The notes under the pieces: generated by a model
What the model saw: the letters and a program-made list of their open reading frames with translations, nothing else
The model's database searches: none
What the model was told of the DNA's origin: nothing
In this document: positions 16,653 to 38,723 of the stretch, one piece after another
Position numbering within the stretch: position 1 is the stretch's first letter
Layout: each line of letters starts with the position of its first letter
Origin: Spongiibacteraceae bacterium
GTDB taxonomy: Bacteria > Pseudomonadota > Gammaproteobacteria > Pseudomonadales > CAMLJR01
NCBI GenBank assembly: GCA_047602265.1
Contig: JASGHU010000001.1
Span: 3,465,702-3,529,701, forward strand
Direction of reading: 5' to 3'
Length of the DNA: 64,000 nt
Program-made: the position numbers and the translations under genes

Positions 16653-16734
16653 TTTGCCAGAAAAAAAAACTTGGGTTAGCCTGAAAAAAGACAGCGATAA
16701 CTGCAGTGTTTTATCGCCTGTTTGGAGTAAGCAA

Positions 16735-16882: not shown

Positions 16883-17005
16883 ATAACGCACGCGCTCGTT
16901 TGACGACACGTAAACGAAGTTGTGTTATCCGAATTAACGCATCGCTGACGATGCACGTGTTAACCGAGCCATGTATTCGTATCGAAAGACGAATCGAATT
17001 GGGAG

Positions 17006-17818
17006 ATGGGTATGCCTCACAACGAATCCTTAAACAAATCTTTATTCGCATCGACGAAACCTCTCTATCGCGACGAAATCGAAGGCGGTAAGCACTGGTC
17101 TTTCGTAATCAAGCGCGATCACGTCCTACGCATTATCGACAAAGACGGCGGTGCCAATGTCGGCATGCTGTTTTACAACCCGCTCAATCCGCTCGAACGC
17201 TACAACGCACCCGATACGCTGAAATGTCAGCACACGTTCAAGCTCACCAAAGGGCATTGCCTGTATTCGGATATGGGCCGCATTTTTTGTTCTATCGTCG
17301 ACGACACTTGCGGCTGGCATGACACCGTCGCCGGCACCAGCAATAAAGCGCTCGTAAAAAATCGCTGGGGCGAACACAACTATCAACAATTTCGCAACGA
17401 CTGGTACTTAAATGGGTATGACAGCTTTCTCGTCGAACTCGCCAAATACGGTTTGGGAAGAAAAGATTTAGCGGCCAACGTCAATTGGTTCAGTAAGGTC
17501 GCGGTCGACGACGCGGGCAATTTTCAGTATGACGAAAGCCACAGCAAAGCCGGCAATTATGTCGACCTGCGTTTTGAGATGGATACGCTGGTGATTTTCA
17601 ACACCTGCCCACATCCGCTCAATAAATCCAGCGAATATCCACGCAAATCGATCATCTACGAATTTTACGAAGCAGCGCCGCGCGCCGCCGACGATTTCTG
17701 CGAGCACTCGTGCTGCGAGAACGAACGCGGATTTAAAAATAATGCGCTCTACCATCTTCAAGCGACAGGCGCATTTCCTATTTTCAAAAACCAGAATGGC
17801 TTCGGAGGTGCGCAATGA
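17006..17818 (+). CDS. DUF1989 'urea-carboxylase-associated' protein, probable carboxyguanidine deiminase subunit (CgdA/B type)
   Basis: 270 aa and a paralogue of the next gene. It sits between the riboswitch and the carboxylase. The start could be 17012. Confidence 0.8.
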
Positions 17819-18450
17819 TACTCTCAAGCCAACTCGCACCCGAAGCAGCAACGTATCGCAAAGTCATTCCAGCCGGCGATTACTGGATGCACGTGATCAA
17901 GAAAGGTCAGGTATTGCGCATTCTCGATCTCGAAGGCAATCAGGCGGCGGACACACTGTTTTATTCGGCTGCTGATCCCGGCGAACGCTACTCTGCTGTC
18001 GACACCATTCGCGAACAAGGCAATGTGTATTTAACCGCGGGCACGAAATTATTATCGAACGAAGGCAATGTGCTGCTCGAAATCGTCGCCGATACCTGCG
18101 GCAGACACGACACCCTCGGCGGCGCGTGCGCAACCGAATCGAATACCGTGCGTTACGCACTCGAAAAGAAATGCATGCATGCGTGTCGCGATAGCTGGAT
18201 GCTCGCCGTTGCCGAAAACGAAAAATTCGGCATGACCAAGCGCGACATTACCCACAACATCAATTTCTTCATGAACGTGCCGGTAACACCCGAAGGCGGT
18301 TTGACGTTCGCCGACGGTATTTCCGAAGCCGGAAAATACGTTGAATTAAAAGCCGAGATGGATGTGATCGCGCTGCTGTCGAATTGCCCGCAGCTGAACA
18401 ATCCATGCAATGCATACAACCCAACACCGATTGAAGTGTTGATTTGGTGA
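17815..18450 (+). CDS. DUF1989 'urea-carboxylase-associated' protein, second probable carboxyguanidine deiminase subunit
   Basis: 211 aa. ATGA start/stop overlap with the previous gene. The two share the motif pattern ([20 protein letters not shown] versus [20 protein letters not shown]). Confidence 0.8.
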
Positions 18451-18460
18451 GGGTGACAAT

Positions 18461-21400
18461 ATGTTTAACGCTGTATTAATCGCCAATCGCGGCGCCATTG
18501 CCTGCCGCATTATTCGTACGCTGAAAGCGATGAATATCCGCGCCATCGCCGTGTATTCGGAAGCCGATGCCGACTCGCGCCATGTCGCGCTCGCCGATGC
18601 CGCTTTCAGTTTGGGTGTTGGCAATGCCGCGCAAACCTATCTCGATCAGGACAAGTTATTTGCGATCGCGAAGCAAAGCGGCGCGCAGGCAATTCATCCG
18701 GGTTATGGATTTCTGAGTGAGAACGCAGGCTTCGCACGCCGCTGTGCCGCAGAAAATATTGTATTCCTCGGCCCCACGCCCGAGCAGATGGAGGCCTTCG
18801 GCCTCAAGCACACCGCGCGACAACTCGCGGTCGACAGCAAATTACCGCTGCTGCCAGGCAGCGGCTTACTCGACACGTTAGACGAAGCGATTACAACAGC
18901 TGAACGCATCGGCTATCCACTCATGTTGAAATCCACCGCGGGCGGCGGCGGTATCGGCATGCAGCTGTGCTTTAGCGAAGACGATTTGCGCGCAGCGTAC
19001 GATTCGGTGCGCAGACTTTCTGCCAATAATTTTTCGAACAGCGGTGTGTTCCTCGAAAAATACGTCGGCAATGCACGCCATATCGAAGTACAAATTTTCG
19101 GCGATGGCAAAGGCGGCGCGCTCGCGCTCGGCGAACGTGACTGCTCGACACAGCGCCGCAATCAGAAAGTTATCGAAGAAACGCCAGCGCCGAATTTACC
19201 CGAGAGCGTGCGCACGCAATTGCGCGATGTTTCGATTCGTCTCGCCAGCGCCGTGCAATACCGCAGCGCGGGCACCATCGAATTTATTTACGATCCACAG
19301 GCCGAGCAAGTTTACTTTCTCGAAGTCAATACGCGACTGCAGGTCGAACACGGCGTCACCGAACAGATTTACGGCGTCGATCTCGTGCGCTGGATGATCG
19401 AAGTTGGCGCAGGCGAATTGCCGCCGCTCGATCAACTCGCCAAAAATCTAACCCCGCGCGGCCATTCGATTCAGGTGCGCTTGTACGCGGAAGATCCCGG
19501 CAAGAATTTTCAGCCGAGTGCAGGATTACTCAGCTCAGTAGATTTCCCGGAAGCTGACGGCAAGCAATTGCGAATTGATCACTGGCTCGAAGCGGGCATC
19601 GAGGTCTCGCCCTTCTTCGACCCGATGCTCGCGAAAATTATTGTGTGGCGCGACACGCGCGAAGCGGCGATTGACGCTCTCGATCACGCACTGTCGCAAA
19701 GCACGGTTTACGGAGTCGAAACCAATCGCGATTATTGCCGCGCGATTTTGCGCAGCGACATTTTTACACGCGGTGAAATCCACACGCGCTATCTCAATCA
19801 ATTCGAATTTCTGGCTCCGCGCATCGATGTGCTGCGCGCGGGCACGATGACGACGATTCAGGATTTTCCCGCTCGCGGCGGCTACTGGGATGTCGGCGTG
19901 CCGCCGTCGGGACCGTTCGACGATTGGTCGTTCCGGCTTGGCAATCGCCTGCTCGGCAACGATGAGAAATGCGCGGGCCTCGAAATCACACTCAACGGCC
20001 CGACACTGCAATTTCGAACCGCAACACAAATTGTGTTGGCTGGTGCACCACTCGCAGCAAAACTCAACGACGCGCCGGTCGATTATTGGCAAGTGATCGA
20101 TATTGCTGCGGGCGATGTGTTGTCGATTGGCAGTAACACCGCATCGGGAGCGCGCGCGTATTTGCTCGTGCGCGGCGGCATTGAATGTCCGGATTATCTC
20201 GGCGCAAAATCCACATTCACGCTCGGCCAGTTCGGCGGTCATAACGGCCGTGCATTGCGTGCGGGCGATGTGATTGCGATTTCGCCGCTCGAAGCGAAAG
20301 TTGACGCAAAGCTATTAGCGAGCGATTTAATTCCCGCGCTCAATTCGACGTGGGATATTCACGTTATTTACGGCCCGCATGGCGCACCCGATTTTTTCAC
20401 GCCGAGCGACATTGAGAAATTCTTCGAAGCCGAATGGGAAGTGCATTACAACTCCTCGCGCACGGGCGTGCGTCTGATCGGCCCGAAACCCGAATGGGCG
20501 CGCAGCGATGGCGGCGAAGCAGGCATGCATCCGTCGAATATTCACGATAACGCCTACGCACTGGGCAGCATCGATTTCACCGGCGATATGCCCGTGATTC
20601 TCGGGCCCGATGGCCCTTCGCTCGGCGGTTTCGTGTGCCCCGCTACGGTCATTCGCGCCGAGCGTTGGAAAATTGGCCAGCTCAAAGCCGGAGATCGTGT
20701 GCGTTTTGTTCCGGTCACGCTTGCGACTGCCGAAAAAATCGAACGCGCACAACTCGCTGCGCTGGAAAACTTAAGCGCACAAAATATCGCTGTCGAATCC
20801 TGCACAAGTCTGCCGAATCCAATCATCGATTCCATCGCGGCAACCGATGCGAGTGTCGCGGTGAATTATCGCTGCGCCGGCGATAAATTTCTGCTCGTCG
20901 AATACGGTCCGATGATGCTCGATATCGATCTGCGTTTTCGCGTGCACGCACTCATGCTCGAATTACAACGCAGTAAACCCGCCGGTATTTTCGAGATGAC
21001 GCCGGGTATTCGCTCGCTGCAAATTCATTACGACAATCTGCGCATCAGCACCGCGCAATTGATTGCGTGGCTGAAAGATACCGAAGCCAAACTCGGTGCG
21101 AGCGACGATCTCGAAGTACCTGCGCGTGTCGTTTATTTGCCGCTGTCGTGGGATGACGAAGCCTGTCGCCTCGCGATCGAGAAATACATGCAGTCGGTGC
21201 GCAAAGACGCGCCGTGGTGCCCGAGCAATATCGAATTCATTCGCCGCATCAACGGCCTCGATAGCATCGACGACGTGAAAAAAACCGTGTTCGATGCGAG
21301 TTATGTGGTGATGGGCCTCGGCGATGTGTATCTCGGTGCGCCCGTAGCCACGCCGCTCGATCCGCGCCATCGCCTCGTCACCACCAAATACAATCCTGCA

Positions 21401-22075
21401 CGCACGTGGACGGCGGAAAACTCAGTCGGCATCGGCGGCTCATATATGTGCGTGTACGGCATGGAAGGTCCTGGCGGCTATCAATTTGTCGGCCGCACGC
21501 TGCAGATGTGGAACCGCTATCGCACCACGAAAGAATTTTCCAAACCATGGCTGCTGCGCTTCTTCGATCAGATTCGCTTTGTCGAAGTCAGTGCCGAAGA
21601 ACTTGTAAAAATTCGGCGCGATTTTCCCAATGGACGTTATTCGCTGCGCATCGAAGAAACCACCTTCAACTTGCAGCAGTACCGCCAATTTCTGCGCGAC
21701 AACGCGGACGACATCGCCGCCTTCACGAAAACACGCGATGAGGCCTTCGCGGAGGAGCTGCAGCGCTGGCGCGATAACGGCCAATTCACCTTCGACAATA
21801 CCCCGCTCGATGTCGATACGAGTGGGGATACCGAGCAGCTTCCACCGGGTGGCATTGCGGTGGAAAGTCAGGTCGCGGGCAGCATTTGGAAGATTCTGGT
21901 CAAGCCCGGTGAAAAAATTAAATCGGGCCAGATTATTGCTGTGCTCGAATCGATGAAAATGGAGATCGACGTACACGCCAGCGTCGACGGCGTTGTACAC
22001 AACATTGCCCGCGGGGAAGGCAGCCAGATCGGCGCTGGCCAAACTCTGATGGTGATTCGCGAGGAGAAAATTTAA
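18461..22075 (+). CDS. Biotin-dependent urea/guanidine carboxylase (context favours guanidine carboxylase)
   Basis: 1204 aa. N-terminal biotin carboxylase (MFNAVLIANRGAIACRIIRT...), central carboxyltransferase/KipA-KipI-like regions, and a C-terminal biotinyl domain with the AVLESMKME motif. Confidence 0.9.
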   Translation: MFNAVLIANRGAIACRIIRTLKAMNIRAIAVYSEADADSRHVALADAAFSLGVGNAAQTYLDQDKLFAIAKQSGAQAIHPGYGFLSENAGFARRCAAENIVFLGPTPEQMEAFGLKHTARQLAVDSKLPLLPGSGLLDTLDEAITTAERIGYPLMLKSTAGGGGIGMQLCFSEDDLRAAYDSVRRLSANNFSNSGVFLEKYVGNARHIEVQIFGDGKGGALALGERDCSTQRRNQKVIEETPAPNLPESVRTQLRDVSIRLASAVQYRSAGTIEFIYDPQAEQVYFLEVNTRLQVEHGVTEQIYGVDLVRWMIEVGAGELPPLDQLAKNLTPRGHSIQVRLYAEDPGKNFQPSAGLLSSVDFPEADGKQLRIDHWLEAGIEVSPFFDPMLAKIIVWRDTREAAIDALDHALSQSTVYGVETNRDYCRAILRSDIFTRGEIHTRYLNQFEFLAPRIDVLRAGTMTTIQDFPARGGYWDVGVPPSGPFDDWSFRLGNRLLGNDEKCAGLEITLNGPTLQFRTATQIVLAGAPLAAKLNDAPVDYWQVIDIAAGDVLSIGSNTASGARAYLLVRGGIECPDYLGAKSTFTLGQFGGHNGRALRAGDVIAISPLEAKVDAKLLASDLIPALNSTWDIHVIYGPHGAPDFFTPSDIEKFFEAEWEVHYNSSRTGVRLIGPKPEWARSDGGEAGMHPSNIHDNAYALGSIDFTGDMPVILGPDGPSLGGFVCPATVIRAERWKIGQLKAGDRVRFVPVTLATAEKIERAQLAALENLSAQNIAVESCTSLPNPIIDSIAATDASVAVNYRCAGDKFLLVEYGPMMLDIDLRFRVHALMLELQRSKPAGIFEMTPGIRSLQIHYDNLRISTAQLIAWLKDTEAKLGASDDLEVPARVVYLPLSWDDEACRLAIEKYMQSVRKDAPWCPSNIEFIRRINGLDSIDDVKKTVFDASYVVMGLGDVYLGAPVATPLDPRHRLVTTKYNPARTWTAENSVGIGGSYMCVYGMEGPGGYQFVGRTLQMWNRYRTTKEFSKPWLLRFFDQIRFVEVSAEELVKIRRDFPNGRYSLRIEETTFNLQQYRQFLRDNADDIAAFTKTRDEAFAEELQRWRDNGQFTFDNTPLDVDTSGDTEQLPPGGIAVESQVAGSIWKILVKPGEKIKSGQIIAVLESMKMEIDVHASVDGVVHNIARGEGSQIGAGQTLMVIREEKI

Positions 22076-23928
22076 TGCTGGCTTTTGAACAAATCGATCT
22101 CACTATTTCCGGCCTGCGCGCGCATTACCAACGCGGCGATTTCACACCGCGCGAATTGATCGCCCTGCTGCGCGAGCGCAGCAAGCAATTCGTCGATCGC
22201 AATATCTGGATTCATGAGTTGAGCGACGCCGAGATCGACATTTACTTGAGTGCTCTCGATAAGCGCTCACCCACCGATGCACCGCTGTACGGTGTTCCCT
22301 TCGCCATTAAAGATAATATTGACCTCGCCAACATCGAAACAACCGCTGCGTGCAAAGCCGTCGCATTCACGCCGAGCGAAGATGCATTCGTCGTCAATAA
22401 TTTAATTGCTGCCGGCGCGATTCCACTCGGCAAAACCAATCTCGATCAACTTGCGACGGGCATCAATGGCACGCGCTCACCGTGGGGCCCCGGCAAAAAC
22501 AGTTTCGATCCAAAATATATTTCGGGCGGTTCGAGTTCGGGTTCGGCGATTGCGGTTGCACTCGGCATCGCCACATTTTCGCTCGGCACCGACACCGCAG
22601 GCTCCGGCCGCATTCCCGCCGCGTTCAACAATATCGTCGGCTGGAAACCCACACGCGGCATTTTAAGCAGCCGCGGTATGCTGCCCGCATGCCGCACACT
22701 CGACTGCATCACGCTGTTCACCTCCACCGCCGCCGATACCGCTGCATTGCTGCCCTTCGTCGCGCGTTACGATGAGAAGGATGCCTACGCACGCGTCAAT
22801 CCTGCGCACAATACATCGAACAGCGGCATGGCGAATCCGTTCGGTGCACCTGCCAAAAAATCGTTTAAATTCGGTGTACCGCGCGCCGATCAGCTTGAAT
22901 TTTATGGCAACGAAAACTATGCAGCAGCGTTTGCGAAAAGTATTGCATTGCTCGAAAGCATCGGCGGTATCAAACGCGAGATCGATTTCCGTGATTTTCT
23001 CGATGCCGCGCGCCTGCTGTACGAAGGCCCATGGATTGCCGAGCGTTATCACGGCATTCGCGAACTGATCGATAGTAATCCTTCTGCGTTATTGCCCGTG
23101 ATTCAAACCATCATCGGTCAGGGCCGCGATAAATCCGGCGTCGATACGTTCGATGCGATGTACAAAATGCAGGAATTCCGCCGCAAGATCGAACCTCTCA
23201 TCAACTCGCTGGAATTCATTGCAACACCAACCGCGGGCACGCATTTCACGATTGAAGAAATGCTGGCCGAACCGATTCTGCATAATTCGCAGCTCGGCTA
23301 TTACACCAACTTTATGAATCTGCTCGATCTTGCCGCTGTCGCTGTGCCCACGCAGATACTCGACAACGGCATGCCCTTCGGCATTACCTTATTTTCCGAT
23401 CGCTTCACCGATCTGCGTTTGCTCAGTTACGCACAAAAAATTCAAGCGACGACGAAACTGCCGCTTGGCGCCACGAAAAAAGCGGTTGAATTCCCCGCGC
23501 TGCCCGCACGCACCGAATTATCGACGTGCAAGGTTGTCGTCTGCGGCGCACACATGAGCGGCCTGCCATTCAACAATCAATTACTCGCGCGTCAAGCGAA
23601 ATTAATTTCAAAAACCAAAACGTCGTCGAGCTATCGCTTCTACGCGCTTCCAGGCGGCGCGGTACAACGTCCGGGTTTGATTCGTGTCGGCTCTCTCAAT
23701 GACGCTAGTGCTGGGGGCGGCGCAGCGATTGAAGTCGAAGTTTGGGAAATGCCGAGTGTCGAATTCGGCTCCTTCGTCGCCGCGATTCCGCAACCGCTCG
23801 GTATCGGCAAAGTGGAATTGGAAAGTGGTGAATGGGTACCGGGATTTATTTGCGAAGGTTATGCAGTAAACGGCGCGGAAGATATTACGGCGCTCGGCGG
23901 GTGGCGGAATTTTATCGGGCGCAAATAA
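22075..23928 (+). CDS. Allophanate hydrolase
   Basis: 617 aa. Amidase-signature domain (GGSSSGSAIAVALG, GTDTAGSGRIPAAFNN) plus the extra C-terminal domain typical of allophanate hydrolases. TAATG overlap with the carboxylase. Confidence 0.9.
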   Translation: MLAFEQIDLTISGLRAHYQRGDFTPRELIALLRERSKQFVDRNIWIHELSDAEIDIYLSALDKRSPTDAPLYGVPFAIKDNIDLANIETTAACKAVAFTPSEDAFVVNNLIAAGAIPLGKTNLDQLATGINGTRSPWGPGKNSFDPKYISGGSSSGSAIAVALGIATFSLGTDTAGSGRIPAAFNNIVGWKPTRGILSSRGMLPACRTLDCITLFTSTAADTAALLPFVARYDEKDAYARVNPAHNTSNSGMANPFGAPAKKSFKFGVPRADQLEFYGNENYAAAFAKSIALLESIGGIKREIDFRDFLDAARLLYEGPWIAERYHGIRELIDSNPSALLPVIQTIIGQGRDKSGVDTFDAMYKMQEFRRKIEPLINSLEFIATPTAGTHFTIEEMLAEPILHNSQLGYYTNFMNLLDLAAVAVPTQILDNGMPFGITLFSDRFTDLRLLSYAQKIQATTKLPLGATKKAVEFPALPARTELSTCKVVVCGAHMSGLPFNNQLLARQAKLISKTKTSSSYRFYALPGGAVQRPGLIRVGSLNDASAGGGAAIEVEVWEMPSVEFGSFVAAIPQPLGIGKVELESGEWVPGFICEGYAVNGAEDITALGGWRNFIGRK

Positions 23929-23974
23929 TTGCTGTTGTGAAACATTGATGTAGTGAACCTAGGGAGATATTACT

Positions 23975-24424
23975 GTGATAGCAAGTCGTGATGAAGTAAC
24001 GGAAATGATCGTATCCACCAAGGTACGTAAAGGTATCAAGTGGAAAGACGCTGCCGAGTTGATCGGTCTTTCGAAAGAGTGGACAACGGCTGCCTGTCTC
24101 GGGCAAATGACGTTCAACAAAGAGCAAGCCGAAAAAATTGGCAAGCTGTTCGAATTACCCGATGAAGCGATCGCCTGGCTGCAAATTGCGCCTTACAAAG
24201 GCTCGCTGCCAACCGCAGTACCAACTGATCCTCTCATCTATCGCTGGTATGAAATCGTCAACGTTTACGGCTCAACCATCAAAGAATTAATTCATGAAGA
24301 ATTCGGCGACGGCATCATGAGCGCCATCGATTTCTCGATGGATATTCAACGTGAACCCGACCCAAAAGGCGACCGCGTGCATGTGGTGTTGTCGGGTAAA
24401 TTTTTGCCTTACAAAACTTATTGA
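23975..24424 (+). CDS. cynS: Cyanase (cyanate hydratase)
   Basis: 149 aa. Colinear with E. coli CynS, including PTDPLIYRWYEIVNVYG, KELIHEEFGDGIMSAIDF and the C-terminal GKFLPYK. GTG start with SD AGGGAGA. Confidence 0.9.
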   Translation: MIASRDEVTEMIVSTKVRKGIKWKDAAELIGLSKEWTTAACLGQMTFNKEQAEKIGKLFELPDEAIAWLQIAPYKGSLPTAVPTDPLIYRWYEIVNVYGSTIKELIHEEFGDGIMSAIDFSMDIQREPDPKGDRVHVVLSGKFLPYKTY

Positions 24425-24441: not shown

Positions 24442-26076
24442 TCAGGAAAAACGCACAAACTCCCCCTGCGCCGACGACATCGAGCGGTCGTTGGTTGCAG
24501 CGGTTGACGGTGCTGTGGTTGACGGCACTTTGCTTACATCGACCCGAATGTTGTCGCCGCGTTGTTCAGACACTTTGAAGAACGAAACCATATCCAGCAA
24601 ATGATTCGCTTGCGATCCCATTTCCTCGGAAGTTGCCGCCAGCTCCTCTGAAGCACTCGCATTTTGCTGCGTCGTTTGATTGAGCTGCCCCATAGCACTG
24701 TTGATCTGCTCCACTCCGGTCGACTGTTCCTGCGCAGCGGCAGAAATTTCTTCGATAAGATCCGAAGTACGCTTGATCGAAGGCACGATAGCATCAATCA
24801 ACTCACCCGCTTTTGTCGCACGCGCGACTGACGATATCGCCAAACTGCTGATTTCTTCGGCGGCGACGCGACTGCGCTCGGCGAGCTTGCGAACTTCGGT
24901 AGCTACGACCGCAAAGCCCTTGCCGTGATCACCCGCGCGTGCCGCTTCAATCGCTGCATTCAGCGCAAGCAAATTCGTTTGATAGGCGATGTCATCGATA
25001 ATATTTATTTTTGCGGCGATTTGTTGCATCGCTTGCAGAGTGTCCGACACCGCACCCCCACCCTGCTCAGCATGCCCAGCCGCCGTGGTAGCAATATTTT
25101 CGGTGACCTTGGCATTTTCGGCAGATTGACCAATCGATGCGCTCATCTGCTCGATCGAGGCCGATGTTTCTTCAACGCTCGCGGCCTGCTCGGATGTTGC
25201 CTGAGCGAGACTCTGGGCTGTAGCGGAAACCTGATCAGCTGCATTTTTCAGGTTGTCTGCGCTGTCTACTACACTGCCAATAGTCGTCGATAGGCGGGCA
25301 ATCATTTCCTGCATGGCAGACATCATCTGTCCAATTTCATCGGTTGATCTTGCCTCCACACGCACGGTCAAGTCGCCATGCGCAAGCGCAGTCGCTGCAA
25401 TCAACGCCTCTTTCACGGGACGTACAATGCTCACTGTCAGCAACAGCGCAATCAAAATGGTGAGAATACCCGCTGTGGCTGATAACCCAACGATGGCGTG
25501 ACGCGCGATGATTGCCTGCTCGTGAGAAATTCGCCCTGCAGCTGCAGCAATATCTTTTTCCTGCTGCTCGAGAGCTTTAATGCTATCGGCGTAAGCACTG
25601 GCGACTTTTGAATATTCGCCAAGCACCATATCGATCGCTTTTTTTCGGTTATAGGAGGGCGAATCGATATCAGCCAGCTTAAGTAGCTTTTCAAGTTCAT
25701 CACGGTAAGCCGCTCTAGCATTCGTGAGCTGCGTAAATGATTCTTTTCCCTTTTCAGAATCAATCTTCGACTCAAACTTTTGCAGAATCTCGCTATTGCG
25801 CCTGACGAAATTTTCTACGATGGCCAATTGCTGTCGCTGATAATCTTTGTCCTCGGACAGGATTAAATTGCGCAACGCCTGCGCCTGAATCAGCGAATTT
25901 TCAAAAACCTCTGAGGACATTTCCAGTTTGGGAATTTTATCATCGGCCAGATCCAGCGCGTCACCCGCCAACACCGAGATCTTGTTGTAAGCGATTCCCG
26001 AAACTGCAAGCATGAGCAGAAAAATGACGGAGAAACCCAACGCCAAACGGTAGCCTACATTCAGATTTTTGAGCAT
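24442..26076 (-). CDS. Methyl-accepting chemotaxis protein (helical-bundle sensor, HAMP, signalling domain)
   Basis: 544 aa with two TM helices, a HAMP region ([22 protein letters not shown]) and the signalling hairpin [34 protein letters not shown]. Confidence 0.9.
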
Positions 26077-26274
26077 ACCCCCCCACGCAGAGATTTACGA
26101 AATTCGTGCGCAATTCCGCGCAATATGTAAGGACTCTCTCAAAGCTAGCAGTCATCCATCATTTTGTCAGGGTGAAAGCTACCTCTGAAGGCGGAAAAAT
26201 ACTCTCTGGCGTGCCTATTAAACGGTGGTGTGGATTGCCCCCTAGCGAATTACTCAGTTATAGCCGCCGCCGAT

Positions 26275-26634
26275 TTAGATCTTCCGCAACTGCTCATACG
26301 CAAAATCTAAATACATCTCCAGCCGCCTGTTTACCTCGGCAGACAGGCTAATGTATTTAACACGACGATCCTCCACTGCGTACTTCTCAATTAGCAATTC
26401 ACGGTCAATCAGATCCTGCACGTACTTAACAGCAGTACGCCGGCTGATCCCGGGCATAAAATCGTAGAGGCTGGTTTTGGTGAGCGGCTCGCCAGCATGC
26501 AGCCACATCTGAAAAAAAAGATCGGAGTAATTCAGATCGTTTAGGCCCAGCTCTGCAAATGTATCGGTCCAGTAATCGTCGGCTCTTAACATGGCGCTCG
26601 CGACCGCGACCCGTCTTTTATTGCTGATCGCCAT
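26275..26634 (-). CDS. Small winged-helix (MarR-like) transcriptional regulator
   Basis: 119 aa. wHTH-like segment LTKTSLYDFMPGISRRTAVKYVQDLIDRELLIE...RRVKYISLS. Confidence 0.55.
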   Translation of the reverse strand: MAISNKRRVAVASAMLRADDYWTDTFAELGLNDLNYSDLFFQMWLHAGEPLTKTSLYDFMPGISRRTAVKYVQDLIDRELLIEKYAVEDRRVKYISLSAEVNRRLEMYLDFAYEQLRKI

Positions 26635-26701
26635 AACTCCTCCTTACCTTGCCCCTATCTCAACTCCGCCTTCCGGCGAAATAAATAAATCGGGCCGGAT
26701 T

Positions 26702-26725
26702 TATACATGCAATTTTGCATGTATA
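26702..26725. promoter_or_regulatory. Perfect 10-4-10 palindrome, a candidate operator in the divergent promoter region
   Basis: TATACATGCA-attt-TGCATGTATA, between the small wHTH gene and the TIM-barrel/desaturase pair. Confidence 0.5.
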
Positions 26726-26758
26726 GTAACACCCATCAATGAGGTGGAGGAATCCATC

Positions 26759-27601
26759 GTGCAATTTAAATTATTCAAAACCTTCTGGGGATTTTCTGGT
26801 ACGCCGCAGCAAGCGGCTGAGCTGGCGATTGCGGCGGGATTTGATGGTCTCGAAGCGCCTGCGCCGCATGAAGCTAACAAGCTCGAAGAGTTCGCTGCAG
26901 TACTTTCCGATAATCATCTCGACTACATCGCCGAAATCACCACAGCCGGCAGTTATGTGCCCGAACGCAATGCCACACCGCAGCAACATCTCGACGATTT
27001 CGAAGCGAAATTAATTCACGGCAAAAATCTCAACCCGCTGTTTTTCAATGTGATGGCCGGCTGCGATGCGTGGCCACTCGCGACGCAGATCGATTTCTTC
27101 AAGCGTCTCGTCGACATAGCCGATAGACATTCTGTGATTTGCAGCTTCGAAACTCATCGCAGCCGTTCGACGTTTAACCCATGGGTGACACGCGATATTG
27201 CGCGAGCGGTACCGCAATTAAAACTCACCTGCGATTTCAGCCACTGGGCCGTGGTGATGGAACGCTTGCCCGACAGCGAATGGGAGGTGATCAGCGAACT
27301 CGCTGCACATGCACATCACATTCATGGCCGCGTCGGTTACGAACAAGGGCCACAGGTGCCGCACCCTGCTGCGCCGGAATATGCGGCGGCACTTCTCTCG
27401 CACCAACGTTGCTGGGAAGCGATCTGGCAATCGCAACGGCAGCGCGGCTATTCACTCTCGACGATGACGCCCGAATTCGGGCCCGACGGTTATTTGCATC
27501 ATCTGCCTTTCACTAATGTGCCTGTCGCCGATTTATGGCAGATCAATGTGTGGATGGGAACGATAGAACGAGCGCACTTCCATGAGGTGCTTGCTCGTTA
27601 A
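26759..27601 (+). CDS. Xylose-isomerase-like TIM-barrel protein (sugar-phosphate isomerase/epimerase family)
   Basis: About 280 aa. GTG start preceded by GAGGTGGAGG. The longer track ORF (from 26591) would overlap the divergent regulator. The family call comes from general resemblance (FDGLE..., FETH, His/Glu-rich metal-site pattern). Confidence 0.6.
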   Translation: MQFKLFKTFWGFSGTPQQAAELAIAAGFDGLEAPAPHEANKLEEFAAVLSDNHLDYIAEITTAGSYVPERNATPQQHLDDFEAKLIHGKNLNPLFFNVMAGCDAWPLATQIDFFKRLVDIADRHSVICSFETHRSRSTFNPWVTRDIARAVPQLKLTCDFSHWAVVMERLPDSEWEVISELAAHAHHIHGRVGYEQGPQVPHPAAPEYAAALLSHQRCWEAIWQSQRQRGYSLSTMTPEFGPDGYLHHLPFTNVPVADLWQINVWMGTIERAHFHEVLAR

Positions 27602-27652
27602 TGCGTACGCGTAATCGCGTTGTGCGTAATTGCTATCGAATCGACACGGTGA

Positions 27653-28663
27653 ATGAAGATGACAACGATGAAAATGCGTTATGACGATGGCCTGCTGCCG
27701 ACTGCCGCAGCGCTCGTCTATGTGCTGGTGATGTACATCGGCGGATTTGCTCTTTTGCTCGACGCGCAGTGGTGGAGCTGGCCACTCGGCGTACTCGCGG
27801 TGGCGCACGCCATGGTGATCGCCTCTTATATGATTCACGAATGCGCGCATGGCGCCGTATTTATGAAATCGCAACACAATGCCTTGCTCGGCCGTGCGCT
27901 GTTGTGGATTAACGGCGCAAGCTACGGCGATTACGAAGCGATCAAACACAAACACATGCGCCATCATTTCGATCGCGCCGATGTGATCGCCATCGATTAT
28001 CGCGAGATACTGCAACGCCATCCGCTGCTCAGTAAACTCATTGTCACGCTCGAACGTATTTATATTCCGGCGATCGACTGCCTCATGCACGCGCTCGTCA
28101 TTATTCTTCCATTCACCGACGAACGTTATCGCGCACAACGCAAACGCGTTTTAATCAGCCTTTGTGCGCGCAGCTCACTGCTGCTAGCGCTCGCCTTGTA
28201 TTCCTGGATGGCTTTCGCCGGCTACATCGTCGCTTATTTATTGTTTGAAGTCGTGCTGCGCACGATGGATATGCATCAACACACCTACGAAGTTTTCATT
28301 AATCTCGATCAACAGCGCGATGCGGTGAAATTCGATAAAGCGTGTCGTGACAAAAACTACGAACAGCGCAATACCTATTCGAATCCCCTTGGCAAAGGCC
28401 TGCTCGCGAATTGGCTCGTACTGAATTTCGGCTTTCACAATGCGCATCATGAAAAGCCATCGGCACCGTGGTATCGATTACCCGCAATCGATCACGAATT
28501 GAATTATGCCGAACAGGAATTCGATTTTACCGATGTGCTGCGCAGCTATCACCAACACCGCCTGACGCGCGTGCTCAACACCGATCACGGCGACACCAAA
28601 AACATTGCCGATGGTATCGGCTTTGTCGGCGTGCTCGGGGTTTCGTTTTTAACGGCGATTTGA
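27653..28663 (+). CDS. Membrane fatty-acid-desaturase-family di-iron enzyme
   Basis: 336 aa with three His boxes (HECAHG, HKHMRHH, HNAHHEKP) and multiple TM segments. Confidence 0.8.
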   Translation: MKMTTMKMRYDDGLLPTAAALVYVLVMYIGGFALLLDAQWWSWPLGVLAVAHAMVIASYMIHECAHGAVFMKSQHNALLGRALLWINGASYGDYEAIKHKHMRHHFDRADVIAIDYREILQRHPLLSKLIVTLERIYIPAIDCLMHALVIILPFTDERYRAQRKRVLISLCARSSLLLALALYSWMAFAGYIVAYLLFEVVLRTMDMHQHTYEVFINLDQQRDAVKFDKACRDKNYEQRNTYSNPLGKGLLANWLVLNFGFHNAHHEKPSAPWYRLPAIDHELNYAEQEFDFTDVLRSYHQHRLTRVLNTDHGDTKNIADGIGFVGVLGVSFLTAI

Positions 28664-28671
28664 GCGTGAAT

Positions 28672-29388
28672 CTATAACGTGCCGCGTTTGATCGCGTGCT
28701 GCAGCTGACTCAATGTCACACTGCGCGCGATATTCTGACTCTTGCGAATATGCTCGATCATGGCTTTGCGCGCAGCGCGTGCATTGCGCGCACGAATCAT
28801 TTCGCACAGCTCGTAATGCTCGACGAAGGTTTCCATGATCGACTTGCGATCAGGAAAACCCAAGCGGCGTAAAATGCGGATGTGGTTGTTGACGTCTTCA
28901 AGGTATTCAACCAGAACAGGATTACCGCAACCGACCGCAATTTCAATGTGAAATGCTTCTTCGAGCGATTTGATTTCATCGACGTTGACTGCCTTTTTCG
29001 CCCGAGCGGGATTCCAGATTTCCATCAGCGCCGCGATATCCTCGTCGCTCATGCTTTCGCAGGCAAGCTCCACTGCGGCCGCCTCAAGATGCACGCGCAC
29101 ATCGTAATACTGACTGATTCTTTCGATATCCACCGCCCGCACGAAACACCCCTGTTTCGGCTGAATGATCACATGACCTTCCACTGCTAGGCGCTGTAAT
29201 GCAGCGCGCACCGGTGTGCGACTGACGTTGAAATCTTCGGCCAGCTCGGTTTCGGTGATACGCGTTCCCGGATAAATCTCGAATTCGAGGATTTTCTTGC
29301 GCAACTTTTCGTAAATTTTTTGCGATGAAAACTGCGTGGTGGACAAATCGGCTCTCCAAACGATAACAACATAGCGCGCGACAGACAC
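28672..29388 (-). CDS. GntR-family regulator with FCD domain
   Basis: 238 aa. wHTH ITETELAEDFNVSRTPVRAALQRLAVEGHVI plus a helical C-terminal domain. It is divergent from the hydrolase-permease-hydrolase genes. Confidence 0.85.
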   Translation of the reverse strand: MSVARYVVIVWRADLSTTQFSSQKIYEKLRKKILEFEIYPGTRITETELAEDFNVSRTPVRAALQRLAVEGHVIIQPKQGCFVRAVDIERISQYYDVRVHLEAAAVELACESMSDEDIAALMEIWNPARAKKAVNVDEIKSLEEAFHIEIAVGCGNPVLVEYLEDVNNHIRILRRLGFPDRKSIMETFVEHYELCEMIRARNARAARKAMIEHIRKSQNIARSVTLSQLQHAIKRGTL

Positions 29389-29703
29389 TTCGTGGCACGT
29401 TAAATCAGTCGGCCAACACTGTCAAAGTGCGCTCATTTTTAGCGCGCTCGCCTACTAATGAAGCATATCAGGCATTACTGAAAAGACTCATTTTCGCCTT
29501 CGCAGTCCGCATCATCGCGCTAACTCCACGGCATATCGGCATTTTTCCGCGAGCCTCAACAGCTCATGCCGATTGGCGTGACGCTTGCTATCGAAAGATT
29601 GTGCGTTGTATACATCGTCGTGCACATAGACATTTCGACAGCGATTGCGGGTTCCGAAATGCCGGTATTGTGAGTGTCGTTATTTCGCCATGGATGGCGA
29701 CTT

Positions 29704-29745
29704 TTTATGACGCCACACACACGATTTATGACGCCACGCGCACGA
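29704..29745 (+). promoter_or_regulatory. Two tandem 21-bp direct repeats upstream of the first cysteine hydrolase gene
   Basis: TTTATGACGCCACACACACGA / TTTATGACGCCACGCGCACGA (19 of 21 identical), about 50 bp upstream of the ATG at 29794. Confidence 0.4.
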
Positions 29746-29793
29746 CGCTGATTGCTGCAGCGCGTGACTGGACTCACCCGGATCGAGATCTCC

Positions 29794-30474
29794 ATGGCGA
29801 CAGTGACCGCAAAACCCTATCCATTCGAATTGACCCCGGCACAGTGTGCGCTGGTAATTATCGATATGCAGCGCGATTTTCTCGAACCCGGCGGCTTCGG
29901 CGATGCGCTCGGTAACGATGTCTCGCTGCTGCGCCGCACTATCGAACCCAATCAACATTTACTCGCAGCGGCACGTGCAGCAGGCATGCTGGTGATACAC
30001 ACGCGCGAAGGTCACCGACCCGATTTATCCGATTTACCACCGGCAAAAAAACGGCGCGGCAATCACGCAACCACCATCGGCGATGCAGGCCCGATGGGGC
30101 GCATTCTCGTACGCGGCGAAAGCGGCCACGACATTATTCCCGAACTCTACCCCATCGCCGGCGAGCCGATTATCGACAAGCCCGGTAAAGGCGCATTTTA
30201 CGCAACAGAACTCGAATCGATTCTGCGTCACAGCGATATCAAGCAATTGCTTGTCTGCGGCGTCACCACCGAAGTGTGCGTGAACACAACGGTGCGCGAA
30301 GGCAACGATCGCGGCTTCGATTGTCTTGTCGTCGAAGATTGTGTCGGTTCGTACTTTCCGGAATTTCAGGAAATGGGTTTAAAAATGATTGTCGCTCAAG
30401 GCGGCATTTTTGGCTGGGTTGGAAGTTCAAAAGACATTATCGATGTGTTGCGAAATGCGGTGAAAGCCGCGTGA
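29794..30474 (+). CDS. Isochorismatase-like cysteine hydrolase, paralogue 1 (biuret/guanylurea/N-carbamoylsarcosine amidase-type)
   Basis: Asp-Lys-Cys triad context: VIIDMQRDF, DKPGKGAFYAT, GVTTEVCVNTT. ATG 29794 is preferred over TTG 29752. Confidence 0.8.
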   Translation: MATVTAKPYPFELTPAQCALVIIDMQRDFLEPGGFGDALGNDVSLLRRTIEPNQHLLAAARAAGMLVIHTREGHRPDLSDLPPAKKRRGNHATTIGDAGPMGRILVRGESGHDIIPELYPIAGEPIIDKPGKGAFYATELESILRHSDIKQLLVCGVTTEVCVNTTVREGNDRGFDCLVVEDCVGSYFPEFQEMGLKMIVAQGGIFGWVGSSKDIIDVLRNAVKAA

Positions 30475-30502
30475 GAACAATTTAAATCTGGGGGATATTA
30501 CG

Positions 30503-32089
30503 ATGACCACTGCAAAACCTAAGTTATGGGTGCCGGGCGATTGGAATGCATTTTTCGGTTTCGGCACCAATATTCTCGTCAACTTACTGGTGCTCACAGG
30601 ACTGATGCGTTTCGTGCTGAAAATGCCAGATGATTTAGTTTTCGGTCGAATTCTTCCCGCCGTCGGTTTGATGCTGTGCTTGAGCACACTCTACTACGCC
30701 TATCTCGCTTATAAGCTCGCGAAGGAAACCGGACGCAACGATGTTTGCGCATTGCCTTCGGGTATCAGCGTGCCACATATGTTTGTCGTCGTGTTCGTCA
30801 TCATGTTGCCGATCGCTGCAACGACGGGCGATCCCGTCAAAGGCTGGGAGGCGGGATTGACGTGGGTATTCGTGCAAAGTTTTGTGTTGATGGTCGGCGG
30901 CTACATTGCGCCGTTCATTCGCAAAATTACGCCGCGCGCTGCGTTGCTCGGCACACTCGCCGGTGTTTCGATTGCATTTATTTCGCTACGCCCTGCACTC
31001 GAAATGTTTATGACGCCTGTGATCGGCGTTGTCTGCTTCTCAATTATTTTATTGAGCTGGTTCGGCGGTGTGCGCTATTTCAAAGGCATTCCAGCGGGTT
31101 TGATCGCCATCGCCGTCGGCACGTTGATCGCCTGGGGCTCGACTGCCGTTGGCTTGAACTATGGCGGTTTAACTCTCGCAAAACTTTCCGCTTCGATTGC
31201 GAGTTTCGGTTTTTCGATTCCGCTACCCGCTGTCAATCATGTATTCAGCGGCTTCGAATTTATCGGCGTGATTTTAGTCACCGCCATTCCGTTCGGCATT
31301 TACGATCTGGTCGAAGCGATGGATAACGTCGAGAGCGCAGCCGTCGCTGGCGATAGTTTTCCGACAACGCGCGTGCTCACCGCCGACGGTGTGATCAGTT
31401 TGATCGGCTGCCTGATGGGCAATCCATTTATTAACGCGGTTTATATTGGCCATCCCGGCTGGAAAGCGATGGGCGGACGCATCGGCTATTCCGCAGCAAC
31501 AGGTATCGCCGTGATTTTGTTGTGCTGGCTCGGCATTATTGCGGTGTTCTCATCGCTGATTCCCGTCGTTGCGATTTCACCGATTCTTTTATACATCGGC
31601 ATGCTGATCGGTTCCCAAGCATTTCAGGAATCGCCGAAGAGTCATGCGCCTGCGATTATCGTTTCGCTGATGCCGCATCTCGCTGCCTGGGGAAAATTAC
31701 AAATCGATAATGTGCTTGGTGCTGCCGGCACTAACGCTGCGACTGTGGGGCTCGATAAACTCGCGCAAACCGGCGTGCTCTATCACGGGCTCGAAGTGCT
31801 CGGCGGCGGCGCGATTCTCGGCGGCCTTATGCTCGGCGCAATCACGGCCTTCATCATCGATCGTCAATTCGCCAAAGCCTCCGCGTTTGCTCTCGCATCG
31901 GCCGCACTCACCTTCTTCGGTTTCATGCACGGCGAAGCGATCGGCATCGGCCAAACACCGACGGTTGCCTGCGCGTATGTGCTTGTCGCTGCGATTCTCT
32001 TCGCGTGCGAAAAATTCGCGATCGTCGAGAAGAAAATTCACGATAGTTTTGACAATCATGCGGGCGATCACAGCCATGCGAGTGCGTGA
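30503..32089 (+). CDS. Polytopic permease, AzgA/NCS2 (xanthine/uracil/vitamin C permease)-like
   Basis: 528 aa with about 12-14 hydrophobic segments. The family assignment is by general resemblance only. Confidence 0.7.
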
Positions 32090-32090
32090 A

Positions 32091-32780
32091 ATGAAAGAAA
32101 TCTATTTAAAAAGTGATCCTTATCCGTGGCCGTACGATGGCGATCTACGGCCCGACAACACCGCGCTGATCATTATCGATATGCAAACGGATTTCTGCGG
32201 CAAGGGCGGTTATGTCGACAGCATGGGCTACGATATTTCGCTCACGCGCAAACCGATTCAGCCGATAAAAAATGTGCTCGAAGCGATGCGCGCTCGCGGA
32301 TTTTTAATTATTCACACGCGCGAAGGTCATCGCACCGATCTATCGGATTTGCCGGCAAATAAACGCTGGCGCTCGCGCAAAATCGGCGCAGGTATCGGTG
32401 ATCCCGGGCCATGTGGAAAAATTCTCGTACGCGGTGAACCGGGTTGGGACATTATCCCCGAACTGTATCCTATCGCTGGCGAGCCAATTATCGATAAGCC
32501 GGGCAAAGGCTCGTTCTGCGCGACCGATCTCGAATTGGTTCTGCACACGAAAGGCATTCGCAACATTATTCTGACCGGAATCACCACCGATGTGTGCGTG
32601 CATACGACAATGCGCGAGGGCAACGATCGCGGTTTCGAATGCGTGCTGCTGCACGATTGCTGCGGTGCGACCGATCAGAAAAATCACGATGCTGCATTGC
32701 AGATGATCAAGATGCAGGGCGGTGTATTCGGCGCTGTCAGCAGCTCAACGGATTTGATTGCCGCACTCAATGCCGGCTAA
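32091..32780 (+). CDS. Isochorismatase-like cysteine hydrolase, paralogue 2
   Basis: Carries [20 protein letters not shown] and [11 protein letters not shown], and shares the 21-aa block [21 protein letters not shown] with paralogue 1. The ATG at 32091 lies 1 nt after the permease stop. Confidence 0.85.
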
Positions 32781-32817
32781 ATCACGCCAATTAACCAGCG
32801 TAAACGGATGATGTTGT

Positions 32818-33174
32818 GTGGACGAAAATATTGCACCGATCGTATGGCCAAACCTTATCGAGATCGATCCCAATAATGAGGATTTAGTGTGGGAAACGCT
32901 CCAACCCGGTGTGACGATTGCCATGCTGCACGGCGATCGCCATGTCGGCTGCTCCGCCGCGCTATTGTTGTATCAACCTAACACGTCGATTCCACCGCAC
33001 ACGCATACCGGTCACGAACATTTATTGATTCTACGTGGCAGTCAAAGCGACGAGCACGGCACCTATCGTCAGGGCACATTTCTGATCAACAAACCTGCTG
33101 GCGGTCATCGCGTCAGCAGCATCGAAGGCTGCCTGGTACTTGCCGTGTGGGAAGCGCCCGTTAAGTTCACCTAG
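32818..33174 (+). CDS. Cupin-domain protein (ChrR-like cupin)
   Basis: 118 aa with the His-rich cupin motif PPHTHTGHEHLLILRG. Confidence 0.55.
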   Translation: MDENIAPIVWPNLIEIDPNNEDLVWETLQPGVTIAMLHGDRHVGCSAALLLYQPNTSIPPHTHTGHEHLLILRGSQSDEHGTYRQGTFLINKPAGGHRVSSIEGCLVLAVWEAPVKFT

Positions 33175-37019: not shown

Positions 37020-38723
37020 CTAAAACAAAAAATACCGTTGTGTCATCGGCAACGATTGCGCCGGCTCGCACGTCAGCAACTCGCCATCGGCGCGCACGAT
37101 ATACGTTTCGGGATCGACATCGATGTGCGGCTGATAATCGTTGAGCACCATATCTTTCTTGCGCACGGTGCGCGTTCCACTCACTGCGACGAGGGGCTTT
37201 TTCAAATTCAGTGCAGCGACCTGCGGATTATTCAACGCCGCTTGCGACACGAAGGTCACCGAGGTTTTTAATCCGCCGCCGAATGAGCCGAACATCGGGC
37301 GATAATGCACCGGCTGCGGAGTTGGAATCGACGCATTGGGATCGCCCATTGCCGCTGCTGCGATGAATCCGCCTTTAATAATTAATGACGGTTTAACTCC
37401 GAAGAATGCGGGCTTCCACAACACGAGATCGGCGAGCTTACCGACTTCGACTGAACCGACTGTGTGCGCAATTCCGTGCGTGAGCGCCGGGTTCATCGTG
37501 TATTTTGCGATGTAACGTTTGATACGGAAATTGTCGTTGCCGCTCACGTCCTGCTTGAGCGAACCGCGCTGCATTTTCATTTTGTGCGCAGTCTGCCAGG
37601 TACGAATAATCACTTCACCGACGCGACCCATCGCCTGTGAATCCGACGACATCATCGAGAACGCGCCGAGGTCATGCAGAATATCTTCGGCGGCAATCGT
37701 TTCGCGGCGAATGCGTGATTCGGCAAACGCGATATCTTCGGCAATCGCGGGATCGAGATGGTGACACACCATCAACATATCCAAATGTTCGTCGATGGTA
37801 TTTACCGTGTAAGGACGCGTCGGATTGGTCGACGACGGCAATACGTTCGCGTAACCCGCCGCTTTAATAATATCGGGCGCGTGACCGCCGCCCGCGCCTT
37901 CGGTGTGGAATGTATGAATCGTGCGATCTTTAAATGCCGCAATCGTGGTTTCAACAAAACCGGATTCGTTAAGCGTGTCAGTGTGAATCGCCACCTGCGT
38001 GTCAGTCGCTTCGGCAACACTCAAACAATTATCGATCGCTGCGGGTGTCGTGCCCCAATCCTCGTGCAATTTCAAACCGATGGCACCCGCTTCGATTTGT
38101 TCGGTGAGCGGCCCCGGTAAACTCGCGTTGCCCTTGCCGAGAAAACCCAAATTCATCGGAAATGCATCGGCCGCTTCGAGCATGCGATGCATGTACCACG
38201 GCCCTGGCGTACACGTGGTGGCGAAGGTGCCTGTCGCGGGACCAGTGCCGCCACCAATCATCGTGGTGACGCCGGACATCAACGCTTCTTCGATTTGTTG
38301 CGGGCAAATAAAATGAATATGCGAATCGATTCCGCCTGCCGTGATAATCGAACCTTCGCCCGCGATAATTTCAGTGCCTGCGCCGATCGGAATCGTCACG
38401 CCCGGTTGAATATCGGGATTGCCCGCTTTACCGATCGCAGAAATTTTTCCGTTCTTGATACCGATATCTGCTTTGACGATGCCCCAGTAATCAATAATCA
38501 CCGCGTTGGTGATGACGGTATCGGCGACTTGCGCAGAGAGCAATTGCCCCTGCCCCATGCCGTCGCGAATGACTTTGCCGCCGCCGAATTTCACTTCTTC
38601 GCCATAGATCGTGAAATCTTTTTCGATTTCGATCCACAAATCAGTATCGGCGAGACGCACTTTGTCGCCGACGGTGGGACCGAACATTTCGGCATAGGCT
38701 TGGCGCGATATTTTTCTACTCAT
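37020..38723 (-). CDS. ureC: Urease alpha subunit UreC
   Basis: 567 aa. Carries [37 protein letters not shown], the carbamylated-Lys region GLKLHEDWG, and MVCHHL. Confidence 0.97.

Follow-up and report, generated by a model that had tools for sequence, protein, structure and literature searches.

We found that a 64,000-nucleotide (nt) stretch of a Spongiibacteraceae metagenome-assembled genome (MAG; contig JASGHU010000001.1, positions 3,465,702 to 3,529,701; the whole stretch is called the window below) carries a five-gene module in which a minus-strand GntR/FCD regulator gene faces four plus-strand genes, which encode a cysteine hydrolase, a permease of 528 amino acids (aa), a second cysteine hydrolase and a cupin. 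We consider it probable that this module is a GntR-repressed trtA-permease-biuH-cupin operon which scavenges nitrogen from triuret and biuret. An earlier note, made from the sequence alone, had listed a regulator, two hydrolases around a permease and a trailing cupin. All of these genes were found where the note had placed them, and Pfam matches confirmed the divergent GntR/FCD regulator and the trailing cupin. The features used in the argument are as follows.

28672-29388, minus strand: GntR and FCD regulator (Pfam GntR 9.1e-20, 70.5 bits; FCD 2.2e-25, 89.9 bits)
29606-29614, no strand assigned: candidate GntR operator TTGTATACA, a half-palindrome of TTGTATACAA, 188 nt upstream of the trtA ATG
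29794-30474, plus strand: hydrolase 1, predicted trtA-type triuret hydrolase, 226 aa (best PDB match TrtA 6XIX)
30503-32089, plus strand: permease, 528 aa, predicted secondary transporter (UraA-type 7+7 fold in the AlphaFold2 (AF2) model)
32091-32780, plus strand: hydrolase 2, predicted biuH biuret amidohydrolase, 229 aa (NCBIfam NF050097)
32818-33174, plus strand: cupin, ChrR-type Cupin_7, 118 aa (Pfam Cupin_7 2.5e-18)
22075-23928, plus strand: allophanate hydrolase, AtzF (NCBIfam 775 and 728 bits, above cut-offs)

The permease gene follows trtA after 28 nt, a single A separates the permease stop codon (TGA, 32087-32089) from the biuH ATG at 32091, just as the earlier note had read it, and the cupin gene begins 37 nt after biuH. 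With all four genes on the same strand and gaps of 1 to 37 nt, we predict that they form one operon. A scan for sigma-70 promoters and terminators was no richer than in shuffled sequence and left the operon ends undefined. The four operon proteins are exact matches of MFT3931770-MFT3931773 from a Spongiibacteraceae MAG, which were deposited as 'isochorismatase family cysteine hydrolase', 'hypothetical protein' and 'cupin domain-containing protein'. The open reading frame (ORF) of hydrolase 1 can be extended to a TTG at 29752; the 226-aa form that starts at ATG 29794 corresponds to the deposited MFT3931770.1.

Both hydrolases match the Pfam Isochorismatase family (8.5e-45 and 1.1e-41) and they are 55% identical to each other. 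The alignment bore out the Asp-Lys-Cys context that had been noticed in both proteins, and the motifs IIDMQ(R/T)DF, DKPGKG(A/S)F, TT(E/D) and REGNDRGF are present in the paralogues. The DNA that encodes the shared peptide blocks differs between the paralogues by about 9 synonymous changes per 60 nt, therefore the identity of the blocks reflects selection on the protein, and recent gene conversion between the paralogues was rejected.

In the published pathway triuret is converted to carboxybiuret, then biuret and then allophanate (PMC7948467). We took the residues that define TrtA and BiuH from Tassoulas et al. (PMC7948467), where D24, F29, E72, K132 and Q202 are substrate-binding residues common to both enzymes and six positions discriminate the TrtA from the BiuH consensus (F35/Y, N41/Y, A134/S, E160/D, Y187/T and I205/V, TrtA residue first). 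In the same work single substitutions in TrtA at several of these residues lowered triuret activity by more than 90%. Hydrolase 1 found its best PDB match in Herbaspirillum sp. BH-1 TrtA (6XIX; 275 bits, 60% identity). Aligned to TrtA it carries the triad D24/K129/C162, conserves the contacts F29/E72/K132/Q202, agrees with TrtA at all six discriminating residues (F35, N41, A134, E160, Y187 and I205) and shares the TrtA indel pattern. Its score against the NCBIfam BiuH model NF050097 was 287.2 bits, under the 370-bit cut-off. By these residues hydrolase 1 is assigned as a TrtA-type triuret hydrolase.

Hydrolase 2 scored 418.4 bits against the NF050097 equivalog, above the same cut-off, and is 79% identical to the crystallised BiuH of R. 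leguminosarum (6AZO; 419 bits). At 6/6 discriminating positions its residues are those of BiuH (Y Y S D T V), and triad and contact residues are intact, which assigns it as a BiuH biuret hydrolase. We then built a neighbour-joining tree of 102 sequences (the window, related loci and two references; 206 columns, without an outgroup and with GuuH left out). In this tree the TrtA-type group, which includes Herbaspirillum TrtA and hydrolase 1, split from the BiuH group in 100/100 bootstraps. The phylogeny and the comparison of pocket residues that the earlier note had proposed thus place hydrolase 1 with TrtA and hydrolase 2 with BiuH, and its expectation of paralogous enzymes for two related substrates holds, the predicted substrates being triuret and biuret.

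The same note had also named guanylurea as a substrate that would feed the nearby guanidine branch, had placed N-carbamoylsarcosine amidase in the same superfamily and had listed RutB and PncA (nicotinamidase) for comparison. Either hydrolase could in principle be one of these enzymes, since all belong to one superfamily and a guanidine-degrading operon lies nearby. However, the experimentally verified guanylurea hydrolase of pMET-2 (BB_00025, PMC9800807) carries Tyr at position 132 and Glu at position 202, and its signature is YMADGI, whereas both window hydrolases keep Lys132 and Gln202 and are 51% identical to it; on the contact residues, the second-shell signature and this identity guanylurea hydrolase was rejected for both. 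The hydrolases also fell far under the cut-offs of the N-carbamoylsarcosine amidase model and of the RutB (116 and 122 bits versus 378), PncA (33 and 41 versus 174) and YcaC models (33 and 30 versus 310). We therefore hold this alternative to be very improbable, and the guanidine link is not supported. The proposed role as a feeder stands in its other half: allophanate, which BiuH is predicted to produce, is what the allophanate hydrolase of the upstream operon acts on.

The permease is bound to TrtA-type genes well beyond this genome. We scanned related loci with one genome per species, which gave 80 loci, 75 of them with enough upstream sequence. In 67/75 loci the gene directly before the permease is of the TrtA type; besides these, three upstream hydrolases are truncated where the contig ends and one has a frameshift. 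Among the hydrolases immediately upstream of a permease, 64/70 carry the six-residue TrtA signature. Loci with the trtA-permease pair span Alpha-, Beta- and Gammaproteobacteria, Verrucomicrobiota, Myxococcota and Acidobacteriota, and across this permease-linked clade identity to the characterised TrtA is 54-65%. A BiuH-type gene directly follows the permease in 12/77 loci. At least 11 other species share the complete order trtA-permease-biuH-cupin, among them Cellvibrio, Ketobacter, Solimonas, Brevifollis and a Methylococcales MAG, and in several of them a divergent GntR gene accompanies it. We propose that the window permease is an importer of triuret or linear ureides (or of whatever the natural substrate of TrtA is), replacing the Bmp ATP-binding cassette (ABC) transporter of the published clusters, because a TrtA-type gene stands directly upstream in 67/75 loci. 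No paper in the searchable literature ties a permease to triuret.

We found three ways in which the pathway is completed beside trtA-permease: biuH with the cupin; biuH with an AtzH/HpxZ-like NTF2 gene right behind it (Nevskia, Steroidobacteraceae); and atzE/atzG/AtzH-like genes with atzF (Terrarubrum and many Alphaproteobacteria). Each of these routes would consume carboxybiuret, the TrtA product, and they therefore support TrtA chemistry for the clade.

The window permease had no match to Pfam or NCBIfam even at E<=10, PF00860 included, and none to PDB sequences with either the single sequence or a 34-member family profile. Its close clade (at least 70% identity) is likewise without any Pfam match, and 3/34 distant relatives weakly match Pfam Xan_ur_permease (best 5e-7). 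The family is large: a library clustered at 50% contains 3077 of its representatives at E<=1e-3, and 603 remain at E<=1e-30. An AF2 model built from 58 sequences reached a pLDDT of 88.9 and a pTM of 0.84, and Foldseek matched this model to SVCT1, SLC26Dg, UraA, UapA and AZG1 (TM 0.5-0.58, 10-16% identity). The Foldseek probability was 1.00 for SVCT1, UraA, UapA and AZG1 and equally for SLC26 transporters, with AZG1 ranked 46th; the match therefore indicates the superfamily and not the family. The model thus predicts the 7+7 inverted-repeat UraA-type fold common to NCS2/NAT, AzgA, SLC26 and SLC4. The label 'AzgA/NCS2-like' given by the earlier note holds at the level of the fold alone. Two invariant motifs of the family, at 83-92 and VYIGHPGWK at 313-321, fall on the two short beta-strands that lie within the membrane in the model, and these crossovers, we assume from UraA, are the place where substrate binds. 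A second 528-aa ORF in the window (59247-60833), considered as a permease paralogue, was rejected and is a sigma-54 activator.

Public names for members of the permease family include 'AGZA family xanthine/uracil permease-like' or 'adenine/guanine/hypoxanthine permease' at JGI and, for some, 'xanthine permease' at NCBI. NCBI also labels several members 'regulator' (L091 6983-8584, P0075, P0088, P0107 and P0369), which looks like a propagated mis-annotation of what is by its model a multi-helix UraA-type membrane transporter.

The cupin matches only positions 107-203 of the ChrR profile, that is the C-terminal cupin part, and lacks the N-terminal anti-sigma domain. Its His-x-His-x3-Glu...His metal ligands are invariant in 21 homologues. 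Across the 80 loci the cupin tracks biuH (15/19 cupin loci carry biuH; odds ratio 29, p=6e-8), and it never occurs together with the AtzH-like NTF2 gene (0/19 cupin loci versus 15/61 others). A tblastn search of the window with an HpxZ/AtzH-like protein gave no match. In Rhizobium 3841 a homologue of the window cupin (E 3e-23) occupies the slot after trtA in an otherwise syntenic operon; in Herbaspirillum the gene after trtA is AtzH-like (PF11533). TrtB, the known carboxybiuret decarboxylase, appears to be AtzH-like, since trtB is analysed together with atzH and hpxZ in PMC12625717, whose abstract uses atzH for the same gene set. We therefore rejected the cupin as TrtB itself, given the PF11533 protein in the Herbaspirillum TrtB slot and the grouping in PMC12625717. 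We propose instead that the cupin is a non-homologous substitute for TrtB, because it tracks biuH, excludes the AtzH-like gene and fills the TrtB slot in Rhizobium 3841. Fusion proteins of 344-357 aa (P0454, P0464, P0497, P0502 and P0526) join AtzH-like PF11533 and TrtA-like isochorismatase domains; by their domain content these would be a Rosetta-stone link of TrtB-type and TrtA-type functions.

The regulator combines an N-terminal GntR winged helix with a C-terminal FCD domain, both above Pfam gathering scores, and belongs to the FadR/FCD subfamily. Its start codon is tentative: the protein collection lacks the 238-aa form that begins with GTG. Orthologous divergent regulators (49-73% identity) hold the same position in Verrucomicrobiaceae, Cellvibrio, Moraxellaceae and Ketobacter loci, and we predict that the window protein probably represses the operon. 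In the 405 nt between regulator and trtA lies TTGTATACA. In 18 related loci of Gamma- and Betaproteobacteria and Verrucomicrobiota this 9-mer also precedes the trtA-type gene, in most cases in the form of the perfect palindrome TTGTATACAA. It fits the generic GT-N-AC operator pattern of the GntR family. The window holds two matches to TTGTATACA versus 0.23 expected, and 4/100 shuffles give at least two. The copy at 29606-29614 is our best candidate for the operator of the divergent regulator. The other copy (58866-58874) falls at the 5' end of an ORF for a Porin_4 outer-membrane porin (57565-58908, minus strand), which could be co-regulated with the operon or be a chance match.

Rfam at gathering thresholds found no riboswitch in the 405-nt leader; a permissive leader search was not run. 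The trtA leader does contain a terminator-like hairpin (29676-29701) with a T-run behind it. Immediately adjoining is a tandem 21-nt direct repeat, TTTATGACGCCAC(A/G)C(A/G)CACGA (29704-29745). As a conserved operator this repeat was rejected, being absent from the closest relative (L006), and it looks like a lineage-specific insertion.

From these assignments we infer the following scheme. The permease would import triuret, and possibly biuret, across the inner membrane. TrtA would cleave triuret at one terminal amide, which releases ammonia and leaves carboxybiuret, and carboxybiuret would lose CO2 to become biuret, either spontaneously or sped up by the metal-dependent cupin. BiuH would then convert biuret to allophanate and ammonia. 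The allophanate could be finished by the allophanate hydrolase about 6 kb upstream or, alternatively, be decarboxylated to urea that passes to the adjacent urease. The GntR/FCD protein would probably repress from TTGTATACA until an effector binds, for which triuret, biuret or an intermediate are candidates.

The neighbourhood suits this scheme. An operon that the earlier note had placed 6 kb upstream, with an allophanate step, is real (16731-24424) and its allophanate hydrolase ends 5.9 kb before trtA. It begins with a Guanidine-I riboswitch (16731-16878; 82 bits versus a gathering score of 63 in Rfam), followed by UAAP1 and UAAP2 (CgdAB-type), a 1204-aa urea/guanidine carboxylase, the allophanate hydrolase and a cyanase. 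From its gene content we predict a complete guanidine-to-ammonia operon with an appended cyanase. Beyond the module lie urease with its accessory genes and an Urt urea ABC transporter, and other window genes encode NikR, a type III glutamine synthetase, a creatininase-family protein and an ABC transporter. The gene content thus marks the window as a predicted nitrogen-scavenging island. Rfam also reported 5_ureB_sRNA at 38285-38571 (plus strand, 91 bits), antisense to the minus-strand urease structural genes, which may be mere conservation of urease coding sequence. Between the cyanase and the GntR gene (24442-28663) are genes for a methyl-accepting chemotaxis protein (minus strand), a weak xylose-isomerase-like TIM-barrel protein and a membrane protein of the fatty-acid-desaturase family; the latter two have no counterparts in the related loci.

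Several observations weigh against a triuret and biuret operon. Hydrolase 1 is 60% identical to the sole characterised TrtA, versus 53.5% to BiuH, and the permease-linked TrtA clade may be a sister group whose natural substrate is akin to triuret without being identical to it. A biuH gene lies within 6 kb in only 22/80 trtA-permease loci, and an E. coli plasmid operon with the TrtA signature (allH-allF-allG-arcC) is without biuH, which hints at chemistry beyond the published pathway. The sole allophanate hydrolase in the window sits behind the guanidine riboswitch, so its expression during triuret growth is uncertain. A 34%-identical permease homologue stands between xdhABC and guaD on Roseobacter plasmids. 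For the cupin, carboxybiuret decarboxylates spontaneously with a half-life of about 20 min in vitro (PMC7948467), so that no enzyme is strictly needed; its exclusivity with the AtzH-like gene is statistically modest (p=0.016, without correction for phylogeny); and the apparent AtzH-like nature of TrtB has PMC12625717 and the Herbaspirillum locus as its whole basis.

Some of these points can be read as a different pathway. If the permease were an ordinary nucleobase transporter (xanthine, urate or guanine), the module would belong to purine catabolism and triuret and biuret would arise inside the cell. The JGI and NCBI names, the branch between xdhABC and guaD, the weak Xan_ur_permease matches of the 3/34 distant members and the thought that triuret comes from urate oxidation (PMC7948467) all favour this. 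We nevertheless judge it unlikely: the window protein and its close clade have no Pfam match, the TrtA-type gene is bound to the permease in 67/75 loci, no purine-catabolic gene (xdh, uricase or allantoinase) is adjacent in the window, and the reference clusters hold a transporter in the operon, which argues for a substrate from outside. Just as improbable, in our estimate, is that the TrtA-type enzyme and the permease act on another natural linear ureide, such as an oxalurate-like compound or acyl-urea from purine or pyrimidine oxidation, for which triuret is a surrogate. The 54-65% identity across the clade would allow it, TrtA-signature genes occur within allF/G/H/K clusters (Roseiarcus-like genomes, E. 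coli plasmids and Peptoclostridium), most trtA-permease loci are without a nearby biuH and the natural source of triuret is unknown (PMC7948467). Yet all contact residues and 6/6 second-shell residues of hydrolase 1 match TrtA, where single changes at several such residues cost nearly all triuret activity, and biuH lies in the same window operon, as the triuret pathway predicts.

The role of the cupin is the more evenly balanced question. We rate it a serious possibility, somewhat short of even, that the cupin is not a pathway enzyme and is instead a ChrR-like sensor or regulatory module, or a protein unrelated to carboxybiuret. Its sole relatives of known function by sequence are the cupin domains of ChrR anti-sigma factors, no cupin is tied to carboxybiuret in the literature searched, and the spontaneous decay of carboxybiuret would make an enzyme dispensable. 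Set against this are the missing anti-sigma domain, the shared operon and the co-occurrence with biuH, the exclusion of the AtzH-like gene whose post-trtA position the cupin takes in Rhizobium 3841, and the invariant metal ligands. A wider reading, which we regard as possible but doubtful, is that the permease founds a family of importers of linear acyl-ureides (triuret, perhaps biuret and oxalurate) and that the cupin is a metal-dependent carboxybiuret decarboxylase that displaces the AtzH-like TrtB. If this were true, the triuret pathway would exist in a second, widespread version, defined by this permease and cupin, among Proteobacteria, Verrucomicrobiota and Myxococcota of soil and aquatic habitats.

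More distant branches of the permease widen the picture. In a 52%-identical subfamily a TrtA-signature hydrolase also stands directly upstream, and some of these pairs are embedded in clusters of the order allK-allG-allF / atzF-hydrolase-permease / allH-GntR. Still more distant branches lie within oxalurate clusters (allFGH-allK). Judged by gene context, the family as a whole would serve purine and ureide catabolism and not ureides exclusively, with the window clade tied to TrtA.

Many IncF plasmids of E. coli and Klebsiella, often from poultry, carry an operon that combines a TrtA-signature hydrolase (66% identity, FNAEYI) with allH-allF-allG-arcC paralogues and a cytosine-type permease. A second cluster some 21 kb away, allH-allF-allG-permease-allK, holds a 37%-identical homologue of the window permease. 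The loci on pCys-1 (NZ_CP041299.1) are L097 7995-15205 and L090 2094-8519. This arrangement suggests an energy-yielding transcarbamylase route for a TrtA product. On a plasmid of Peptoclostridium acidaminophilum (L092 6953-10834) we observed a mirror sandwich, in which two paralogous permeases flank one cysteine hydrolase (FNAHFI) with a PucR regulator ahead and allH-allF-allG-arcC after. Plasmid pADPe of Pseudomonas sp. ADPe, an atrazine-type IncP plasmid, has a fragment homologous to permease residues 76-345 (L094 6980-8954) adjoining a nucleoside deaminase, a truncated ring-opening amidohydrolase and an IS21 element.

Triuret and biuret occur as impurities in urea fertiliser, which is used in very large quantities, and they may also arise when urate is oxidised. 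The enzymes that degrade them were described only in 2018-2021, and in the literature searched their entry into the cell is not studied and no transporter for linear acyl-ureides is reported. The trtA-permease pair, found in dozens of species of four or more phyla, suggests a common natural nitrogen source and offers a concrete transporter candidate. Displacement of TrtB by the cupin is a testable assignment for a gene that is also part of the well-studied Rhizobium 3841 cluster. The annotations of four proteins, now 'cysteine hydrolase', 'hypothetical protein' or 'regulator', and 'cupin', could be improved.

At the level of single proteins, hydrolase 2 is identical to BiuH (PDB 5BK6, 6AZN-6AZS; NF050097) in catalytic, contact and signature residues, with no difference detected in sequence. 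Hydrolase 1 shares with TrtA (PDB 6XIX, 6XJ4 and 6XJE) the triad, contacts, six specificity residues, indels and clade; it differs in being 60% identical and in adjoining a permease family that is absent from the characterised clusters. The permease resembles the NCS2/NAT, AzgA and SLC26/SulP transporters (UraA, UapA, SVCT1, AZG1 and SLC26Dg) in its predicted 7+7 fold and in the short beta-strands of two crossover helices, whereas it is 10-16% identical to them, has no PF00860 match and finds no sequence match among solved transporters; unlike NCS2 and AzgA proteins, the window clade is partnered by ureide amidohydrolase genes and not by nucleobase salvage genes. The cupin takes the operon slot of TrtB/AtzH/HpxZ (after trtA or biuH) in the same pathway context, but its fold is unrelated, a Cupin_7 with a His3Glu metal site as opposed to the NTF2-like PF11533.

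The earlier note had taken the arrangement for an undescribed operon type. That trtA clusters with biuH is published (PMC7948467), and the legend of Fig. S1 in that paper lists trtB, atzD, atzF, a GntR regulator and an ABC transporter cassette in such clusters; the four-gene order itself occurs in the other species counted above. The enzymatic core and the type of regulator are thus already on record, and what is still undescribed in the literature searched is the permease family and the cupin. On pRL10 of Rhizobium 3841 the order is GntR / Bmp substrate-binding protein, two permeases, formamidase, BiuH, AtzD, ABC ATPase, TrtA-type hydrolase and cupin. In Herbaspirillum it is AtzF, Bmp substrate-binding protein, two permeases, a hydrolase, ABC ATPase, TrtA, AtzH-like (PF11533) and GntR/FCD. 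The window resembles both in bringing TrtA-type and BiuH-type hydrolases, a transporter and a GntR/FCD regulator together in one cluster, and it shares with them allophanate hydrolase as the final step and with Rhizobium the homologous cupin. It differs in that the reference clusters interleave a Bmp-family ABC transporter (substrate-binding protein, two permeases and ATPase) with the hydrolases, whereas in the window the single 528-aa permease stands between them. Rhizobium has atzD (cyanuric acid hydrolase), which the window lacks. Where Herbaspirillum has an AtzH-like TrtB the window has the cupin, and atzF, which in Herbaspirillum is inside the operon, lies in the window 6 kb away in the guanidine-riboswitch operon.

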